Origin: a virus
Length of the DNA: 17,411 bases
Virus record (IMG/VR): IMGVR_UViG_3300037126_000158
Location: 1-17,411 of that record
Reading direction: 5' to 3' (one strand)
The notes under the pieces were generated by a model that was given only the letters and a program-made list of their open reading frames with translations, had not been told where the DNA came from and did no database searches. Shown here one piece after another: positions 1-7,950 of the stretch (position 1 is the stretch's first letter; each line of letters starts with the position of its first letter). A program made the translations under genes and the position numbers.

Positions 1-1467
1 GAGCAGGAGGTTGATGTCAACGCCGTGCTGGACGGCATCGAGGGCATCGACGGTGGCCCGTCGGAGGGTGGCTTCAGCTGGCACACCCTCGAGGTCTGCA
101 TGAAGTGCTGGCGGAGGGCCTACTACGCCTTCATCATGGGGCTCGTCCCCAAGATTCAGTCCAAGGCCCTGCAGTACGGCTCCCTCTACCATGCCTTTTG
201 GGAGCTCTGGTATCGGTATGGTGGCTCACGACCCTACGACGAGGTGTTCGACGCCGTCCGCCGGGCCGGGGCGCCAGAGCTCGCCGGCCACTGCCAGCGG
301 CTCGTCTACCAGGAGCTGCAGCTGTTCGCCCAGCAGGAGGCCCAGGAGTGGGACATCAGGGCCGTCGAGAACAACGCCGTGTTCTTCGCCGAGCCGCAGC
401 GCATCGGAGGCAAGACGGTGCATCTGCCCTTCTCCTGCCGCCACGACGCGCTGATCGCCAAGAAGCAGCCCGGGCAGGCCAACGCGCCGCTGGGCCCCGT
501 GGCCACAGGCGTCCACATCGTCGACCGCAAGACGACCTCGGCGCTGACCTACGATCTGACCAAGGGCTACGCGATGGACGGCCAGTTCCTGATGAACGCC
601 CTGGTCTACAAGCGCTCCGGGGAGGAGCAGGAGTTCGGCCCGCTGGTCGGAATGATCTTCAGCGTGGCGGCCAAGCACAAGGACCCGTCGGCACGCTCGT
701 TCCACCGGGTCGAGACCATCACCGAGGACACGGTGCTGGAGCGGTTCCTGCAGGACGAGCTGATCCCCTACGGCACCGAGTTCTGGCGTCGGCTCGCCTC
801 GGAGGAGCACCGCAAGGACATCCGGCTGTGGCACAAGAACCACTCGCAGTGCGTCGGCCGCTACGGCTGCTGCGAATACTTCGACCTGTGCGACGTCGGC
901 GGCGAGAACCTCGTTGACGTGGCCTTCAAGGTCGACCCGCGACGGGTCTTCACCATCGACAAGCTGGCCGAGCCCTCGACGGACACGAAGCGCGCAGCCA
1001 AGATGGCCGACCCCAAGAAGGCCGCGTCCGAGGTGAAGCGCCAGCAGCGCACCGCGTACCGCAAGAAGCTCGCCGAGCTGGTGATGGCGACCTTCTGCGA
1101 CGTGGCGTCCTCGATGGAGATCTTCGCGTCCGACAAGTACCTGGTGCCGGGCCACACCGAGAAGTCGGTCAAGGAGAAACTGGCCGACACCCTGCGGGCG
1201 AGCTGGGAGCAGGGCATGGTCTTCCCGTTCGGGCCGGACGGCGAGGGCAACATGTACGAGATGGAGGTCAAGGAGAAGGGCATCGCCTGGAAGCACGAGC
1301 TGCCCTTCACCCCGGAGGAGCAGGCGAAGAACGCGGAGCTCGTTGCCAAGGGCAAGAAGGCAAAGGCGCCGCAGACGTTCAAGGGCACGATGAACTTCAA
1401 CACCATCGCGGCAGCCATCTGCAAGGACTGGTGGGACATGTCGCAGCACCCACCGCAGGGCAAGTAG
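1..1467 (+). CDS. Cas4/RecB-family PD-(D/E)XK exonuclease (5'-partial; frame is open and GC3-rich from base 1; first in-window start is GTG 25). Has an N-terminal C-x2-C, RecB motif III-like 'IVDRKTT', a Q-x3-Y motif 'GQFLMNALVY' and a C-terminal 'C-x5-CC-x5-C' cluster (4Fe-4S-like). Followed by a ~170-aa Lys-rich C-terminal extension of unknown function.
   Basis: Motifs read directly from the translation (EVCMKCW...VHIVDRKTT...GQFLMNALVY...CVGRYGCCEYFDLC). GC3 is high from position 1. Stop TAG at 1465-1467. Confidence 0.6.
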   Translation, partial: EQEVDVNAVLDGIEGIDGGPSEGGFSWHTLEVCMKCWRRAYYAFIMGLVPKIQSKALQYGSLYHAFWELWYRYGGSRPYDEVFDAVRRAGAPELAGHCQRLVYQELQLFAQQEAQEWDIRAVENNAVFFAEPQRIGGKTVHLPFSCRHDALIAKKQPGQANAPLGPVATGVHIVDRKTTSALTYDLTKGYAMDGQFLMNALVYKRSGEEQEFGPLVGMIFSVAAKHKDPSARSFHRVETITEDTVLERFLQDELIPYGTEFWRRLASEEHRKDIRLWHKNHSQCVGRYGCCEYFDLCDVGGENLVDVAFKVDPRRVFTIDKLAEPSTDTKRAAKMADPKKAASEVKRQQRTAYRKKLAELVMATFCDVASSMEIFASDKYLVPGHTEKSVKEKLADTLRASWEQGMVFPFGPDGEGNMYEMEVKEKGIAWKHELPFTPEEQAKNAELVAKGKKAKAPQTFKGTMNFNTIAAAICKDWWDMSQHPPQGK

Positions 1468-1480
1468 GAGAGAGACCCGC

Positions 1481-3838
1481 ATGAATGCCCCCGCACCCAG
1501 CCCGTACAGCCCGGAGCTGCAAGCTCTGCTGAACAGGCTCAATCCCTATCAGGTCGAGGCCGTCAACGTCGGCGAGGGCCAGGCTTGCCTCGCCGGGGTT
1601 CCCGGCGCAGGCAAGACCGGCACCATCGTGGCGCGTGTCGCCAGGATGGTCGCCGACGGCCTCGACCCCGAGTACATCCTCTGCATGACGTTCACCCGAG
1701 CGGCGGCGCAAGAGATGAACGAGAGGCTCAAGCAGCTCGGCATCGTCGGTGCGCGGGTGGGCACCATCCACTCCGTGTGCCGGCAGATCATCGCCGCCGA
1801 CACGCATCTGCTCGAGGAGTTCGACCTCGACGAGAAGAACAGGCTGCCGATGGAGCTGAAGAAGACCCTCGGCGACCTGAGGAAGAAAAAGAAGATCCCC
1901 AACGCCGGGGTGGACCTCGAGGGCGTGTCCCGGTACGTCGAGGCCTGCAAAGCCAAGGGCCTCTGCTACATCTACTCCGACCCCTTTGGCCTGAACATGC
2001 GGGCCGAGGAGTTCTTGCTGCGCCAGGCCGAGAAGTGGACCATGCTGGCCGGGCTGCCTCGCCAGATCCTGATGGACGTCTACATCGAGCTGGAGCGGCG
2101 CCGAGGCATCGCCGGGCTCTACGACTTCAACGACATGCTGCTCTGGTCCTGGATGGTCCTGCTCACCGACGAGGATGCCCGGGAGCGGTGGCGAGGTCGC
2201 TGGTCCGTGGTCATCGTCGACGAGGCGCAGGATTCCAACCCCGTGCAGTGGGACATCGCCCGGTTCCTCGTTGGTCTGAACTCCTGCATGAAGGAGGTCG
2301 ACGAGCTGCCCATGGCGCCGCGGGTGCGGGACTGCGCGCACAACCTGATGGTCGGCGGGGATCCCTCGCAGTCCATCTACGCCTGGCGCTCGGCCGAGCC
2401 CTCGCTGTTCGTCGAGTTCGCCAAGAACAAGAACGTGGATGAGCTGACCTTGCCCATCAACTACCGCTCCAACCCGATGATCTGCGCCATTGGCACCGGG
2501 CTGGTGCAGGGCAAGCCGTGGCACATCACCGGGGAGATCAAGGCAGCCTCGGAGGACATGACGACCGACGCCGTGGCCATCGACCGCTACGACGACGCCG
2601 CCTCCGAGGCCGAGGGCGTCATCCAGCAATGCGTCGAGATCGCCGAGAGCGGCGAGGGGCTCAGGTCCTGCGCGGTGCTCTCGCGGCTTCGGGTGGCGCT
2701 GGACCTGGCGGAGATCGCCTGCATCTCCCGGCGCATCAAGTACGTCAAGATGGCCAGCGGCTCGTTCTTCGAGTCGCGAGAGGTGCGGGACATCCTCGCC
2801 TACCTACGCGTGGCCTCGGGCTACGACCCCGACGGGCGCTGGGTCGCCCACATCATCAACCGTCCGTTCCGCTACATCGGCAAGGGCTTCATCAACAAGT
2901 GCTCGGCCGACGCGATGAACCGGGACATCTCGCTGCTCGACGCGATGATCGCCAACGAGGATGACCTGAGCTACAGACAGCGCGGCTCCATCGAGGACCT
3001 CTACAAGCTGCTGCAGCGTCTGAATCAGATCGCGGCCTGGGCCGAGCAGCGCGAGGCCTACCACCGCGAGAAGCTGGAGAAGGCCAAGCAGGCGGGCGAC
3101 CCGCTCGAGGAGTTGCTCAAGCTGAGGGACGAGGTGCCCACCGAGCTGCTGGACACCCTGGCCGACGCCCGGGGCGACATCGAAGGCATCGGCATGGGCG
3201 GGATGGGGGCACGGCGCCGGGCACGGCGAGCCCGGGAGGAAGCCAACCCGGAGGACGTGGCCGAGGAGTTGAACAGCGCCGGGCCGGCGGAGATGATCGC
3301 CCTGGTCCTGCGGGAGACCGACTACCTGGAGGAGCTACGCCGGGAGGAGGGCCTGCTGGGCATGGACGAATCCAAGGCGGCGATGTTGGCGGCGCTGCAG
3401 CGCATGGCTCGGTCCTTCAAGACCACGAAGGAGTTCCTGGCCTACGTGGACAAGCTGACGGTGGCGGTCAAGCAGGCACGCAAGACTGGCCTGAAGGTGC
3501 GAGAGGGCTCGAACACGGACGCCCTGGTGCTCTCCACCATCCACCGGGCCAAGGGCCTGGAGTGGAAGCACGTGTTCCTGATGGACGTGGTGCAGGGCCG
3601 ACTGCCCAACGCCCGGGCCGAGGACCCGGATGAGGAGCTGCGCCTGTTCTACGTGGCGATCACCAGGGCCATCAAAACCTGTAGGGTGTCTTACACAATG
3701 CCGCCCGAGCCAGAAGACCAGGAAGAGGGGGCAAGCGCCCCCCGCCGCCGGACGGAACAGGTGGGCAAGTCGTCTTATATAACTCGGCTGGAGCAAGAAA
3801 TAGACAAGTTCGCAAGGGGTGTAAGCGAGACCAGATAA
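1481..3838 (+). CDS. UvrD/PcrA-like superfamily-1 DNA helicase
   Basis: SD 'TAGGAGAGAGA' 6 nt upstream of ATG 1481. Walker A 'GVPGAGKTGT', motif II 'VVIVDEAQDSNP', motif IV 'INYRSNPMI', motif V 'LSTIHRAKGLEWKHVFL', motif VI 'LFYVAITRA'. The last ~55 codons show an abrupt drop in GC3 (AGA, ATA, TAT, TCT codons). Confidence 0.85.
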   Translation: MNAPAPSPYSPELQALLNRLNPYQVEAVNVGEGQACLAGVPGAGKTGTIVARVARMVADGLDPEYILCMTFTRAAAQEMNERLKQLGIVGARVGTIHSVCRQIIAADTHLLEEFDLDEKNRLPMELKKTLGDLRKKKKIPNAGVDLEGVSRYVEACKAKGLCYIYSDPFGLNMRAEEFLLRQAEKWTMLAGLPRQILMDVYIELERRRGIAGLYDFNDMLLWSWMVLLTDEDARERWRGRWSVVIVDEAQDSNPVQWDIARFLVGLNSCMKEVDELPMAPRVRDCAHNLMVGGDPSQSIYAWRSAEPSLFVEFAKNKNVDELTLPINYRSNPMICAIGTGLVQGKPWHITGEIKAASEDMTTDAVAIDRYDDAASEAEGVIQQCVEIAESGEGLRSCAVLSRLRVALDLAEIACISRRIKYVKMASGSFFESREVRDILAYLRVASGYDPDGRWVAHIINRPFRYIGKGFINKCSADAMNRDISLLDAMIANEDDLSYRQRGSIEDLYKLLQRLNQIAAWAEQREAYHREKLEKAKQAGDPLEELLKLRDEVPTELLDTLADARGDIEGIGMGGMGARRRARRAREEANPEDVAEELNSAGPAEMIALVLRETDYLEELRREEGLLGMDESKAAMLAALQRMARSFKTTKEFLAYVDKLTVAVKQARKTGLKVREGSNTDALVLSTIHRAKGLEWKHVFLMDVVQGRLPNARAEDPDEELRLFYVAITRAIKTCRVSYTMPPEPEDQEEGASAPRRRTEQVGKSSYITRLEQEIDKFARGVSETR

Positions 3839-3978
3839 TCATGTACTTTTTCGTTGGAAGCAAATCTCCAGGGCCTCGCTTGCGGAGACTCGTAACAAGT
3901 GAGCGGAATCATGACTGATCCTGCAAGAAAAATCGTTACGCATCGGGCAATTCCTCTCTCTATGGATAAAGGAAAGAC

Positions 3979-4447
3979 CATGGGCGTAAGAGAACAGCCA
4001 ACGGTGGGCCTCGGTCCACCCAAGGTCACCATCGGCTCAGCGATCCGCGGCTGGGCCGCCCTGGTGCTGGCCGTGACCAGCAAGACCCGGGTCTCTCACA
4101 TCGACCTGCTGCGCCACGAGGGCCGGTCGAGCAAAGAGCTGGCAGACGCCCGGCGCCTGCTGGTCTGGGCCTTCCTGGAGGTGGTAGACGTCGACGACGA
4201 CATGGCCATCGCCTGGGTCGAGCAGTGCGTGGCCCTGGGCCGGCGCAGCATCATGGACGGCCTGAAGGGCGACCCGCCGGAGGAGCTGGAGGAGGTCGTG
4301 GTGACCTACAACCGGCTCATGCGGGAGATGGGAGACGAGGACGTTCGAGAGGCCGTGGCAGCCGGCCTGCTGGGCGAGCGCAAGCCACGAGCCCGGGTGT
4401 GGCCGCGGGGCTTCCTGCGGCGCCTGGGGCTCACTGAGCAGGAATGA
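3979..4447 (+). CDS. Hypothetical protein (156 aa from ATG 3979; alternative upstream starts GTG 3899 / ATG 3911 lie in low-GC3 sequence and are less likely)
   Basis: High GC3 begins about 3990. 'AAAGGAAAG' SD-like purine run just upstream of ATG 3979. No recognisable motif. The 3' end overlaps the convergent minus-strand ORF by 17 nt. Confidence 0.45.
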
Positions 4448-4733
4448 GCGTCAGGGCGGGGCCCTTCGCCAGGTCCCTCGCCCGCACCCACTGCGGCTGG
4501 TCCAGCTGGGCCATGAAGAGCTCCAGCAACGCCCGGGCCAGTGGGATTCCCGGGGCGGCCTCCACCGACAGGCAGGCCTCGAAATCATCTGGCAGCTGAT
4601 GTTTGGAACGGAGCGCGTTGATGCGCTCAGTGCAGAACCTGTGGAAGGATGGGTCCCGACGTGCCTCCAACAGGGCGTACTCGACTTGAGTCTGATGTGT
4701 CAGCATTTGGTTCAGGTAGCTCGGGCACCACAA
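4431..4733 (-). CDS. ORF in the coding frame (GC3 about 85-90%) downstream of the RepA-like gene. Most likely the C-terminal continuation of that gene through a +1 frameshift at an A4 run (4774-4777); alternatively a separate small gene starting at TTG 4733 or ATG 4706.
   Basis: Minus-strand frame with codon tops at 4775, 4772, ... is open from 4775 to the TGA at 4431-4433 with about 90% GC3, but has no ATG/GTG/TTG start before 4733. The annotated RepA frame has only about 47% GC3 across the same bases. Confidence 0.4.
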   Translation of the reverse strand: MWCPSYLNQMLTHQTQVEYALLEARRDPSFHRFCTERINALRSKHQLPDDFEACLSVEAAPGIPLARALLELFMAQLDQPQWVRARDLAKGPALTLIPAQ

Positions 4734-5874
4734 CGTGCTCTTGCAGCTCCTCCTCGAGAATTGCTTCCTCCTCTTTTACCATGTATTCCGCGAGGTCGAC
4801 AAGGCTGATCTTCTTCAAGGCCTGCCACGCCGGGACCATGCGTGTGCGGGAGCCGTCGGGACCGAAGGGCTTCGGCAGCTCTGCATTCTTGTCGGCCAAG
4901 CCTTCTTCCTCCAAGGCCATCAGGGCCTGCAGTATCTTCTCGGGGCGAACGCCGAGAGTCGCAGCGACGTCCTGGTTGGTCATCGGGACCGTCGCGTCGC
5001 GCAGCACCTTGTAGCAGGCATGCTTCCAGTATTCGAGCACGACGCCGGAGTGGTCCTTGTCGTTATAGAAAGCAAAGGTGACCTGCTTCAGCTCGTCGTC
5101 GTTGCGTGGGACAGCCGAGAACACATGCCCCTTCTTCCCGTTGCGCTGCTTGAGACTCTCGACGGTGACGATCTCCGTCTCGCCGGAGGGGAGCCCGAGC
5201 TTCTTCTTCCAGGTCTTGACGTGGAGCACAGCGTCGGCCCAGCCGTACCAAGCCGAAGAGCCGCGGGGCGTGGGGTCCTTGCCCTTCGTCTCGTGGTGAA
5301 TGATGATGAACGAGGTCTGGTACTCGTCGACCATCCGGTCTACTGCCCGACGGAGAGCCTTGGTCTCCTTCGACGAGTTCTCGTCGCCGCTGAAGAACGA
5401 GTCGAGGGGGTCGAGCACGACCACGATGGGCTCGATGGTCTTGATGACTTGCTCAAGCTCCTCGGTGTCGAGGGCATCGTCGAGGCAGAAGGGCTGCTGG
5501 CAGAAGTAGAGGGGAAGCTCAGCCGGGTTGACCGCATGGGCTCTGGCGTGAGCGAGGAGCCGGTCCTTGTTGTCGAAGATGGACCCCTCCGTGGAGTTGA
5601 GCAGGACCGGCCCGAACTTGTTGACCGTAAACTGCCGCAAAAGCATGCGTTCGGCGCTCAGGGCCACACAGAGGTCGAAGATTATGGTTGACTTGTACGT
5701 GCCCCCCTGGCCAAATACTAAGGTTCGGCCCGCTCGGGGGATCATGTTTTCAACGATCCAGCGGTCCGGGTCGTCCTTGAGCGCCAGCAAATCCTTAACG
5801 GTGTAAATCTGGTGGGACCTGCGGGCCAAGTTGCCTCCTGTCTCTACCGTAGAAGTTGCTGTGCGGTGCGTCAA
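4627..5874 (-). CDS. RepA-like replicative ATPase/helicase (AAA_25, RecA fold) with C-terminal winged-helix DNA-binding region and acidic linker; probable frameshift near its 3' end
   Basis: Walker A 'GQGGTYKST', Walker B 'IVVVLDPLDSF', 'FIIIHHETKG' (RepA/DnaB-like sensor region), then an HTH-like segment 'MTNQDVAATLGVRPEKILQALMALEEEGL'. TTG start at 5874; an alternative TTG at about 5826 is preceded by 'AGGAGG'. Codon usage is less GC3-biased than in neighbouring genes. Confidence 0.7.
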   Translation of the reverse strand: MTHRTATSTVETGGNLARRSHQIYTVKDLLALKDDPDRWIVENMIPRAGRTLVFGQGGTYKSTIIFDLCVALSAERMLLRQFTVNKFGPVLLNSTEGSIFDNKDRLLAHARAHAVNPAELPLYFCQQPFCLDDALDTEELEQVIKTIEPIVVVLDPLDSFFSGDENSSKETKALRRAVDRMVDEYQTSFIIIHHETKGKDPTPRGSSAWYGWADAVLHVKTWKKKLGLPSGETEIVTVESLKQRNGKKGHVFSAVPRNDDELKQVTFAFYNDKDHSGVVLEYWKHACYKVLRDATVPMTNQDVAATLGVRPEKILQALMALEEEGLADKNAELPKPFGPDGSRTRMVPAWQALKKISLVDLAEYMVKEEEAILEEELQEHVVVPELPEPNADTSDSSRVRPVGGTSGPILPQVLH

Positions 5875-6048
5875 GGAATCACCGGATCCGTTGGGCTCCG
5901 GCGATGGTTGACCCTTCTACCACGGCGAAGATCTTCGGCGCAACAATTTTGTGAGATTCTTGTGAGGTCTCAGGGATTTCTGAGAGATCTTGCTCCCTTG
6001 TGAAATAGTTATTGACAAGGGAGATCCAACTGAGGTATTGGTGCTGTT
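5875..6048. promoter_or_regulatory. Divergent intergenic control region with direct repeats and palindromes (candidate promoters/operators or iterons for the RepA-like protein)
   Basis: Lower GC. Perfect palindrome GAAGATCTTC at 5928-5937. AGATCT again at 5985-5990. TTGTGAG at 5949-5955 and 5960-5966 (11-bp spacing) and TTGTGAA at 5998-6004. Inverted repeat TCTCAG(5968-5973)/CTGAGA(5980-5985). Imperfect palindrome CCCTTGTGAAATAGTTATTGACAAGGG at 5995-6021, containing TTGACA at 6012-6017. Confidence 0.4.
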
Positions 6049-7874
6049 CGATGCACTCGGTCACCCTCCAAGATCCGCTGGAGGGCTGCGTTCTATCGTG
6101 GCCCACAAGATGGCCAGGACTCTGCAAGCTGGAGGCCTGCCCACCCGAGCGGTTTGACAGCCTGCGCCGGATCCCTGGGGTCCGGCCCATGGAGAACAAG
6201 AAGAAGCCAGAGGAGACAGGTTGGTACGTGCCGCAGTCGCTCCTCGACATGGGCCTGTTGCCAGCCAACCTTGAGGACTACGATCCCGAGCCGAACGACA
6301 GGACACCGTCGGGCTTGAAGCTCCGTCGGTATCAGGCTCGCACGGTGACCTTCCTTCGTCAGACGACCACGATGCGTGAGGGTAATCTGCTGTGGGCGGA
6401 CCCCGGCCTCGGCAAGACTGTCTCCTCGCTGCAAGCCAACTGGCTCGACGGCTACCTGCAGCGCCCCGGGCTCATCGTCGGACCGAACATCGCCAAGGGC
6501 GTTTGGTGCGACGACGATTCCGACGCCAAGGTGCACTACAACCTGACGGTGTTGTCCCTGGAGGGGATGAAGAACATTGACCCGGGGTTCCTCGAGCACC
6601 ACAACTGCTTCTTCTGCCACTACGAGATCCTGCAGGCGTGGCAGCCGTGGATATTCGCCACGCTCAAGCCTGCCTGGATGATTCTCGACGAGAGCCACTT
6701 CCTGATCCACCAGAAAGCCCAGCGCTCCAAGGCAGCACGGCAGCTCGCCCTGTGCAACACCATCGAGCGACGCTTCTGCCTCACGGGCACAGCCATCCCC
6801 AACGAGAGGCTGGACCTGTGGAACCAGGTGGCGACCTGCCAGCCCCGACAGTGGGGCCCCTCGCACCACGACTTCGGCGTTCGCTACTGCGGCGGCCAGC
6901 GCATGGCCCCCGAGGATGGCGGCCACTGGACCTATGAGGGTGAGAGCAACACCGACGAGCTTCGCGCCAGGCTGGCCGGCACGGTGCTGCGCTACACGAC
7001 CGAGGAAGTCGGCGACGAGCTGCCTCCGATGGAGCGCCACGTCATCGAGGCTGAGGGCATCGAGGAGCACCTGCTCGACGACTACTCGCTGGCTCAGCGC
7101 GACACCATCGGCTACCTCAAGCTCAAAGGCAAGATTCCCGACGAGGCGGCCACGATCACGCTCGGCAACACGACCATCAAGCTGTCGAAGAATGACCGCA
7201 AGCCGGGCGCCGCGCGACTGGTCTGCCTGACGACGCTGATCGGCATCCTGTCGGAGATGAAGCAGGCCGCCGCGATCAAGGCTGTCATCTCCATCCTCGG
7301 CCAACACAACCGACTCGTCGTGTTCACCTGGCGACGGAAGACGGCAGAGTATATATACGACAAGATCGCCGGCATGGTTGCCTCCGGGGTGAAGATCTCC
7401 GGCAAGAGCCCGATGGTCTACGGGCCGGTCCACGGCGAGATGGACATGAAGGAGCGCAAGGCGCTCGCCAAGGAGTTCGCCAAGGACGAGTGCAGCATCT
7501 ACATCGCCACGATGGGCTCGGCCGGCACCTCCATCAACACCCTGTCGGCAGCCTCGGCCTGCTTGCTGGTGGACCTGCACTGGAACACCTCACAGCTGCG
7601 CCAGGCCGAGAAGCGGGTGCACCGCGATGGCTGCACCGCGGAGAAGGTCGACATCTACTACCTGGTGGTCAGGCAGACGGTGGACGATCTCTTCATCGAG
7701 AAGCTGGAGCAGAAGGCCAGGGAGGCGATGAAGATTGCCCCACGGGACGAGAGTGACCTGTCGCTGGTCCGCGACTTGACACCTGAGAAGGCCTCGGGCG
7801 AGTTCGATTTCGAGCTGCTGTGTGCGAGGCTGATGGACTACGACGCAGAATGGGAAGAAGGAGTTATGGCATGA
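6012..7874 (+). CDS. SNF2/DEAH-box superfamily-2 helicase (start uncertain: TTG 6012, ATG 6049 or ATG 6189)
   Basis: Q-motif region 'LRRYQARTV', Walker A 'DPGLGKT', motif II 'ILDESHFL', motif III 'LTGTAIPN', and a C-terminal helicase domain with 'QLRQAEKRVHRDG' (motif VI-like). GC3 about 75% before 6189 and about 90% after. Confidence 0.8.
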   Translation: MTREIQLRYWCCSMHSVTLQDPLEGCVLSWPTRWPGLCKLEACPPERFDSLRRIPGVRPMENKKKPEETGWYVPQSLLDMGLLPANLEDYDPEPNDRTPSGLKLRRYQARTVTFLRQTTTMREGNLLWADPGLGKTVSSLQANWLDGYLQRPGLIVGPNIAKGVWCDDDSDAKVHYNLTVLSLEGMKNIDPGFLEHHNCFFCHYEILQAWQPWIFATLKPAWMILDESHFLIHQKAQRSKAARQLALCNTIERRFCLTGTAIPNERLDLWNQVATCQPRQWGPSHHDFGVRYCGGQRMAPEDGGHWTYEGESNTDELRARLAGTVLRYTTEEVGDELPPMERHVIEAEGIEEHLLDDYSLAQRDTIGYLKLKGKIPDEAATITLGNTTIKLSKNDRKPGAARLVCLTTLIGILSEMKQAAAIKAVISILGQHNRLVVFTWRRKTAEYIYDKIAGMVASGVKISGKSPMVYGPVHGEMDMKERKALAKEFAKDECSIYIATMGSAGTSINTLSAASACLLVDLHWNTSQLRQAEKRVHRDGCTAEKVDIYYLVVRQTVDDLFIEKLEQKAREAMKIAPRDESDLSLVRDLTPEKASGEFDFELLCARLMDYDAEWEEGVMA

Positions 7875-7950
7875 ACCGGAGGAGCGCACGCGACCCACCT
7901 GGAGCAGAACAGAAACCCATCGACCACCAACGTGAGGAGAGGAGTAGGCC

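Follow-up and report, generated by a model that had tools for sequence, protein, structure and literature searches.

What does a short, repeat-dense spacer between two diverging genes of a phage replication module do? The question is raised by a 17,411-nt stretch of virus DNA, IMGVR_UViG_3300037126_000158 positions 1-17,411 (hereafter the window, whose positions serve as coordinates), in which the gene of a RepA-like protein (RepA) runs leftward and that of an SNF2-family helicase (SNF2) runs rightward from a common intergenic region. An earlier description made from the letters alone (the sequence-only reading) had taken this region for a divergent control region that might hold either operators or the iterons of a replication origin. 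Comparison with relatives bears out the divergent control region: two predicted sigma-70-type promoters stand back to back in it, and both are conserved although the rest of the spacer has diverged. The spacer is an ordinary phage early-gene control region. The fullest account that I can offer, to which I give a probability of about 0.55, is that of a divergent promoter region with a putative protein-binding site upstream, locked in helical phase, for which the C-terminal tail of RepA is the best candidate binder.

Relatives and the limits of the spacer

Scans of viral and metagenome collections, together with contig look-ups for RepA homologues, gave 14 distinct metagenomic loci whose RepA is 40-66% identical to that of the window; the closest, L001, is 63-66% identical depending on the alignment. 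The divergent RepA/SNF2 pair, followed by a Sak4-like gene, is present in all 14. Their spacers, of 194-280 bp, can hardly be aligned: mean column identity is 44%. Twelve spacers were used for the counts over aligned spacers given below.

Alignment with relatives places the start of RepA at TTG 5829 (N-terminus MARRSHQIY), preceded by a Shine-Dalgarno sequence, and that of SNF2 at ATG 6051, after which 46 residues are conserved at the protein level (DPLEGCVLS.PTRWPG..KLEACP...IPG). The spacer is therefore 5830-6050, 221 bp with 51% GC, and not the 175 bp given before. TTG 5874, which opens the longest reading frame, was considered as the RepA start and rejected: homologues align from TTG 5829, and TTG 5874 is part of a -35 hexamer. 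Against about 64% GC for the window as a whole, the spacer belongs to one of the two zones of lowest GC (42-45%). The lower GC claimed for the spacer is real and every element listed for it is there; its length and some of the coordinates were off.

The conserved 46-aa N-terminal extension of SNF2 (6051-6188, +) has no Pfam match, and the gene call of one relative, L015, drops it (561 aa called as against about 600 in other relatives). In another, L003, no ATG, GTG or TTG follows the upstream stop in frame with RepA (at about 3001), whose apparent start is a CTG 5 nt after GGAGAG. A small conserved open reading frame (ORF) of about 82-91 aa, at 4431-4706 on the minus strand, overlaps the 3' end of RepA, with which it is presumably co-transcribed; at least five relatives have a counterpart (26-52% identity), and no family match was obtained.

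Two back-to-back promoters

Despite the divergence of the spacers, the SNF2 gene of every relative (14/14) is preceded by TTGACN-N16-18-TA(NNNN), which ends 6-10 nt before the ATG or GTG. In the window, 9 nt separate the -10 hexamer of this predicted promoter, P_snf2, from ATG 6051, and the consensus -35 TTGACA (6012-6017) that the sequence-only reading had picked out is a conserved element, in the form TTGACN. Facing the other way, a second predicted promoter, P_repA, follows a pattern found in 8 of the 12 spacers, TTGAC(A/G/T)-N17-18-TA(G/C)nn(T/G), and its -10, TACGGT at 17 bp, fits TAnnnT. TTGACN-N16-18-TA occurs only twice in the 17.4-kb window, at 6012 (+) and 5874 (-), back to back and each upstream of its own gene. 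The gap between the two -35 hexamers is 132-133 bp in six of eight cases, 137 bp in the window and 143 bp in L002. Directly upstream of the P_snf2 -35, an A/T-rich ATTT/TTTT tract recurs in all 12 aligned spacers; in the window it fits a UP-element-like sequence, and nowhere else in the window do 13 bases include 11 or more A/T (the stretch measures about 15 bp, 6001-6015).

A generic promoter/terminator scanner returned no match in the spacer region, because the -10 of P_snf2 lacks the final T and that of P_repA, TACGGT, matches too few positions of TATAAT. An Rfam scan of 5600-6400 gave only a chance microRNA match (E=0.78). A further promoter upstream, with TTGTGA as its -35, was considered and rejected by eye, there being no conserved -10 hexamer downstream.

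How would SNF2 be translated from such a promoter? The last 18 nt before the gene hold no Shine-Dalgarno-like sequence, which is present at 9 of the 12 other gene starts in the window, and the TA of the -10 lies 12-16 nt before the start codon. Because the -10 is so near the ATG and a Shine-Dalgarno sequence is lacking, I infer that the SNF2 mRNA is leaderless or nearly so, its transcription starting at the ATG or 2-4 nt before it.

A tandem repeat in phase with the SNF2 promoter

The coordinates of the sequence-only reading for TTGTGAG (5949 and 5960, an 11-bp step) and for TTGTGAA (5998) are correct. The direct repeats are 7-bp units, of which two stand at an 11-bp period and the third 38 bp farther along; a poor copy lies at 5990 and an inverted TTGTCAA within the P_snf2 -35 region. 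Counting both strands, TTGTGAR occurs three times in the whole window, each time in the spacer and all within 56 bp.

The closest relative, L001, carries TTGTGAGAATATTGCGAG at the same distance from its -35 hexamer. Thirteen of the 14 specified positions match, a score that none of 1000 shuffles reached (P<0.001), and TTGTAAT / TTGTTAA are found at the place of the third copy in L001 and L024. Farther out, the element takes a degenerate bipartite form, GYGAR, an A-rich spacer and KYGAG, which keeps the 11-bp period. YGAR-N7-YGAG is found in 7 of the 12 spacers, always in SNF2-sense orientation and 50-69 bp upstream of the -35, and it is 13 times as dense in spacers (3.2 per kb) as in the 6-17 kb that flank them (0.25 per kb). 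From the end of the element to the -35 there are 45 bp in the window, L001, L019, L020 and L024, 35 bp in L002, L015 and L004, and 54 bp in L012 and L016; relative to the hexamer, the element shifts in steps of about one helical turn. Because spacing, orientation and helical phase are conserved, the TTGTGAG repeats are plausible protein-binding sites, and the candidate operators of the sequence-only reading gain support from related genomes. De novo tests point the same way. The best 8-mer, GTGAGAAT with one mismatch allowed, gave 10 hits distributed over all six of the first-found spacers and was equalled by 4 of 300 shuffle sets (P ~0.013), the best 17-column block of the inter-promoter alignment beat all but 2 of 150 shuffled sets (P ~0.013), and word counts show GTCGAG and CGAGT to be over-represented across the spacer family.

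Might the repeats nevertheless be without function, the region amounting to just two promoters and A/T-rich DNA? The TTGTGAG pair would then be a recent local duplication that L001 shares by descent, and the wider conservation an artefact of a pattern drawn up post hoc. It fits this explanation that the strict pattern is significant in L001 only, that exact 7-mers recurring at 8-15 bp spacing are, by themselves, common (about 18 loci in the window), and that an expectation-maximisation motif search on the spacers collapsed to a palindromic, low-information RY motif, which was discarded. However, the proteins of L001 are only 63-66% identical to those of the window and the rest of its spacer cannot be aligned, so that retention of 13 of 14 positions suggests constraint. 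The bipartite pattern also keeps its orientation and quantised position in 7 of 12 spacers, and the block and 8-mer tests speak against the explanation too. I consider an absence of function improbable.

A candidate binder in the tail of RepA

If the repeats are a binding site, which protein would recognise them? RepA has a Pfam AAA_25 domain (PF13481, E=6.7e-29, 101 bits). Its AlphaFold2 model (mean predicted local distance difference test score, pLDDT, 89) consists of a RecA-type core (residues 1-256) and a winged helix (residues 261-337), both at pLDDT above 90; the latter is made of three helices (261-308) and a beta hairpin, or wing (312-337). The best-covered Foldseek match of the core is the hexameric helicase RepA of RSF1010 (1g8y, TMt 0.79, root-mean-square deviation 3.3), and the description of the neighbouring gene as RepA-like is upheld, with a predicted winged helix in addition; a sequence search of the PDB with RepA gave no significant match. 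The C-terminal Pfam matches, to HTH_Crp_2 (E=1.4e-5), TrmB and HTH_24, are all below the Pfam cut-offs. Within the family, residues of helix 3 (R.EKI..AL) and of the wing (R.R.VPAWR) are conserved. No other predicted sequence-specific DNA-binding domain turned up among the window proteins scanned, and going by the model this winged helix is the likeliest binder of the repeats. The repeats might also be bound by the 46-aa SNF2 extension or by the product of the small conserved ORF (about 82 aa) that lies downstream of RepA.

The binder need not be encoded by the phage. A host winged-helix regulator of the OmpR/PhoB or SARP type might occupy the 7+4+7 repeat and so tie the replication genes to host physiology, and indeed the 11-bp-period architecture is identical to that of Pho boxes and SARP heptamer repeats, and several relatives have TCGAG-type heptamers. 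Yet the site does not overlap the -35 hexamer but ends 35-54 bp upstream of it, and no Trans_reg_C, BTAD or response-regulator match was found among the window proteins scanned. The GC content of the spacers also ranges from 41 to 54% across the relatives, which probably infect different hosts. A host factor is thus a highly improbable binder.

Control of transcription or origin of replication

The account that I favour, divergent promoters with a phase-locked protein-binding site, would work as follows. The 221-bp spacer would be the transcription control region of the phage replication module. P_repA would drive RepA and the small ORF downstream, and P_snf2, starting at or a few bases from ATG 6051, would give a leaderless mRNA for the string of genes that runs from SNF2 and Sak4 to PolA. 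The repeat pair, about 45 bp upstream of the P_snf2 -35, and the third copy beside that hexamer would be the docking site of a phage-encoded protein, which, once docked, would set the output of one or both promoters, as an activator or as a repressor. Most economically, the winged-helix tail of RepA would bind the repeats, and RepA would thereby regulate its own synthesis; through that contact the helicase might be brought to DNA as well.

Several points weigh against this account. The promoter calls assume sigma-70-type rules for the host, and the -10 hexamer of P_snf2 is without the usual final T. Beyond L001, the best matches of the other ten relatives to the strict TTGTGAG-N4-TTGTGAG are at shuffle level; YGAR-N7-YGAG, the degenerate pattern, was drawn up with the alignments already in view, and the de novo statistics for the repeats are moderate only (P ~0.01). 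No such motif can be made out by eye in L027-L029, the most distant of the relatives examined (RepA 40-49% identical), and a comparison of the RepA recognition helix with repeat variants gave no signal of covariation.

The same repeats could instead be short iteron-like sites at a replication origin, where the winged helix of RepA would bind, the helicase assemble and the adjacent low-GC DNA be opened, possibly aided by flanking transcription. Such an origin would be compatible with autoregulation. It is suggested by the position of the repeats, which adjoin a gene whose helicase product is predicted to carry a DNA-binding domain of its own and are found nowhere else in the window, by the spacer being one of the two lowest-GC zones, and by the constant length held between the promoters. 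On the other hand, there are only two or three good 7-bp copies, all direct, the spacer has no iterons of 17-22 bp, and no DnaA box within two mismatches is found in it except one that overlaps the -35 hexamer. The only strongly AT-rich stretch, of about 15 bp, sits at the position of an UP element, the helical phase is kept with the -35 hexamer, as expected of a transcription site, and GC skew makes no clear switch at the spacer. The sequence-only reading had seen here the classic architecture of an iteron origin. With 7-bp units in two to three copies, no DnaA box, no substantial unwinding element and no initiator of the Rep_3 type, that claim is not supported. An origin in the spacer is unlikely, albeit a serious contender.

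The second low-GC zone (42-48%) lies at 3750-3970, between UvrD and the ORF that follows it. The one near-consensus DnaA box of the window, TTATCCATA, is located there, at 3961 on the minus strand, and an origin or a promoter might be sought in this zone instead.

The comparison gives a corrected map of genes and promoters for this replication module, which belongs to an uncultured phage lineage of high GC. The map includes the true starts of RepA and SNF2, an SNF2 operon predicted to be leaderless and a short list of testable cis elements. It also sets the tandem repeats, the inverted repeat at the -35 and the promoters apart from features at chance level, namely a palindrome, AGATCT/GATC and a small hairpin, to which I now turn.

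Palindromes and other sequence features

The sequence-only reading described a 27-bp imperfect palindrome around the -35 of P_snf2. An inverted repeat is indeed present, as CTCCCTTGTGAA-N7-TTGACAAGGGAG, with 12-nt arms at 5993-6004 and 6012-6023 that are complementary at 11 of 12 positions, and it embeds the TTGACA. It pairs the third repeat copy, TTGTGAA, with a near-complement inside the -35 region. Inverted repeats with 12-nt arms and at most one mismatch occur at three loci only in the window, this one included. The -35 within it is conserved, but the inverted repeat as such is specific to the window and has no conserved equivalent in relatives; it is possibly a phage-specific repressor operator. 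In L019, a perfect CCCTTGT-t-ACAAGGG (CCCTTGTtACAAGGG) lies over the -10 hexamer, and in L003 GTGAGAAT-like arms bracket the -35 hexamer, which hints at operators built from the same half-site and not at a conserved feature.

The remaining elements of the sequence-only reading are present but do not support a functional role. Its 10-bp palindrome is in fact a perfect one of 12 bp, CGAAGATCTTCG, whose core had been placed one base off. Perfect palindromes of at least 10 bp number 22 in the window, about what its composition leads one to expect, and this one, which relatives lack, is probably fortuitous. AGATCT was correctly located at 5985-5990; GATC (the Dam site) and AGATCT are, however, equally dense in other 250-bp stretches, and the sites are absent from the relatives. 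Likewise, the TCTCAG/CTGAGA inverted repeat (5968-5973 and 5980-5985) exists at chance level and is not conserved. I also noticed a 26-nt direct repeat, 73% identical, of the form CCGGATCC..GG..TCCGG, with one copy in the spacer (5882-5907) and the other in the sequence that encodes the N-terminus of SNF2 (6167-6192).

Table 1. Positions of genes, predicted promoter elements, repeats and palindromes in the window.
Feature	Position	Strand	Remark
Exonuclease-like protein gene	25-1467
UvrD gene	1481-3838
RepA-like gene, 400 aa	4627-5829	-	AAA_25 RecA-fold helicase domain and predicted C-terminal winged helix; start TTG 5829
RepA Shine-Dalgarno sequence, AGGAGG	5834-5839	-	4 nt before TTG 5829; read from the sequence
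P_repA -10 hexamer (predicted), TACGGT	5846-5851	-	17 nt after TTGACG; TAGnnT in the same place in 7 relatives
P_repA -35 hexamer (predicted), TTGACG	5869-5874	-	TTGACA/T in L002, L003, L015, L019, L020, L024, L025
Perfect palindrome CGAAGATCTTCG, 12 bp	5926-5937		No counterpart in relatives
Tandem repeat TTGTGAG-ATTC-TTGTGAG (7+4+7, 11-bp period)	5949-5966	+	Candidate binding site for a protein; its centre is about 93 bp ahead of the SNF2 ATG
TCTCAG-N6-CTGAGA inverted repeat	5968-5985		6-bp stem; chance level, not conserved
Imperfect inverted repeat CTCCCTTGTGAA-N7-TTGACAAGGGAG	5993-6023		Overlaps the P_snf2 -35; one of three such loci in the window
Third copy, TTGTGAA	5998-6004	+	Forms the left arm of the imperfect inverted repeat; adjoins the P_snf2 -35
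A/T-rich tract, UP-element-like	6001-6011	+	Directly upstream of the P_snf2 -35
P_snf2 -35 hexamer (predicted), TTGACA	6012-6017	+	TTGACN in 14/14 distinct relatives
P_snf2 -10 hexamer (predicted), TATTGG	6036-6041	+	18-nt spacer; the conserved part is TA only
SNF2-family helicase gene	6051-7874	+	Pfam SNF2-rel_dom and Helicase_C; start ATG 6051
Sak4-like annealase gene	7951-9027
UDG gene	10610-11185
PolA gene	14703-16709

Gene content and lineage

Pfam and PHROG scans show that the window encodes a phage-type replication and recombination module (Table 1). Its sole leftward unit is RepA with the small ORF that overlaps the RepA 3' end; the remaining genes run rightward. At the DNA level a search against cultured phages gave no match to the window, and at the protein level the matches, to Thermus phages, actinophages and environmental phage contigs, do not exceed 30% identity; scans of representative bacterial and archaeal genomes found no relative encoded in them and so pointed to no host. 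For these reasons I take the lineage, judged by its sequence, to be that of an uncultured phage with no close relative among sequenced phages or genomes. Literature searches on the family found nothing.

Some further observations concern neighbouring genes. Within the replication module lies the gene of a 905-aa protein (11263-13980, +) with matches to the Major Vault Protein shoulder (PF11978, E=1.4e-15) and the vault repeat (PF17795, E=8e-10) and none to PHROG or NCBIfam. Directly after its stop codon, at 13987-14019, a strong GC-rich hairpin with 12-nt arms and one mismatch resembles a terminator, without a T tract. A tandem repeat of 12-bp period at 9618-9655, in a stretch of 79% GC within the ORF 9080-9802, probably encodes a low-complexity peptide repeat.

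Relatives carry insertions of their own. The SNF2 genes of L004, L006 and L007 are interrupted by about 1.05 kb, at about 1364-2415 and exactly at the Walker A motif (residue 122); the insert is possibly an intein or mobile intron. In L015, UvrD measures 1382 aa and has intein and DUF559 matches, and in L027 an IS605-type TnpB (OrfB_IS605 / Cas12f-like) and a Y1 transposase (4345-5831) are inserted just downstream of RepA.

Comparison with known systems

The spacer resembles divergent sigma-70 promoter regions that have operator or activator sites upstream in its near-consensus -35 hexamers, in -10 hexamers that begin with TA at 16-18 bp, and in the phased repeat upstream. It departs from them in the P_snf2 -10, which does not end in T, and in a site centred far upstream, at about -84 to -98. 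Many mRNAs of Actinobacteria and Deinococcus-Thermus are leaderless, as is that of lambda cI from PRM, and the predicted SNF2 transcript is like these in that the start codon comes 6-10 nt after the -10 with no Shine-Dalgarno sequence between. Pho boxes and SARP heptamer repeats have an 11-bp period. Like them, the tandem repeat consists of two 7-bp direct repeats with a 4-bp spacer upstream of a promoter, and the 11-bp period is kept in relatives; unlike them, it does not overlap the -35, and no protein of OmpR/PhoB type is found among the window proteins scanned.

Classical iteron origins have at least three to four tandem repeats of 17-22 bp and an inverted half-iteron operator at the rep promoter. 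Plasmids of this kind (pPS10, R6K, F, P1) share with the window direct repeats and an inverted repeat that reuses the unit (TTGTGAA / TTGTCAA) over a -35. The unit is, however, 7 bp long in the window and not 17-22 bp, the product of the adjacent gene is an AAA_25 helicase that has one predicted winged helix and is not a WH1-WH2 protein of the Rep_3 type, and the inverted repeat stands at the neighbouring SNF2 promoter, not at the repA promoter, and is unconserved. RSF1010, an IncQ plasmid, is closer as regards the protein, since its RepA belongs to the same AAA_25 family (101 bits) and has the same fold (1g8y, TMt 0.79). The oriV of RSF1010 comprises 3.5 iterons of 20 bp, which RepC binds, and ssi sites for the RepB' primase; its RepA is not known to recognise the iterons, a task that falls to RepC. 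The spacer has no 20-bp iterons, and no RepC or primase family match was found among the window proteins scanned. Whereas the RepA of RSF1010 has no known DNA-recognition domain, that of the window has the predicted winged helix, and if this winged helix binds the repeats, a RepA/DnaB-type helicase would be targeted to a sequence without a separate initiator.

Helicase-initiators that act at short repeats are known from P4 alpha (8-bp type I iterons at ori and crr), the SaPI Rep protein and SV40 large T antigen, whose GAGGC pentamers lie between divergent promoters. These proteins differ from the RepA of the window in having an SF3 core, where that of RepA is RecA-fold (RSF1010 RepA/DnaB-like) and lacks a primase domain. 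Their origins have at least four to six repeats, usually in both orientations and on either side of an AT-rich segment, as against three good direct copies, one poor copy and one inverted TTGTCAA in the window. The likenesses are that helicase and predicted DNA-binding domain appear to be joined in one polypeptide, that the helicase gene adjoins short repeats of 5-8 bp in a promoter region and, for T-antigen site I, that a tandem pair is split by an A/T-rich spacer. They invite a bolder proposal, somewhat less probable again than an origin as such: a RecA-fold phage helicase may have gained a winged-helix module for origin recognition, with which it would load itself at two to three 7-bp repeats set between the divergent promoters and also regulate both repA and the leaderless operon from SNF2 to PolA. 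If so, an uncultured lineage of bacterial viruses would hold the SF4-helicase counterpart of the design seen in SV40 T antigen and P4 alpha.

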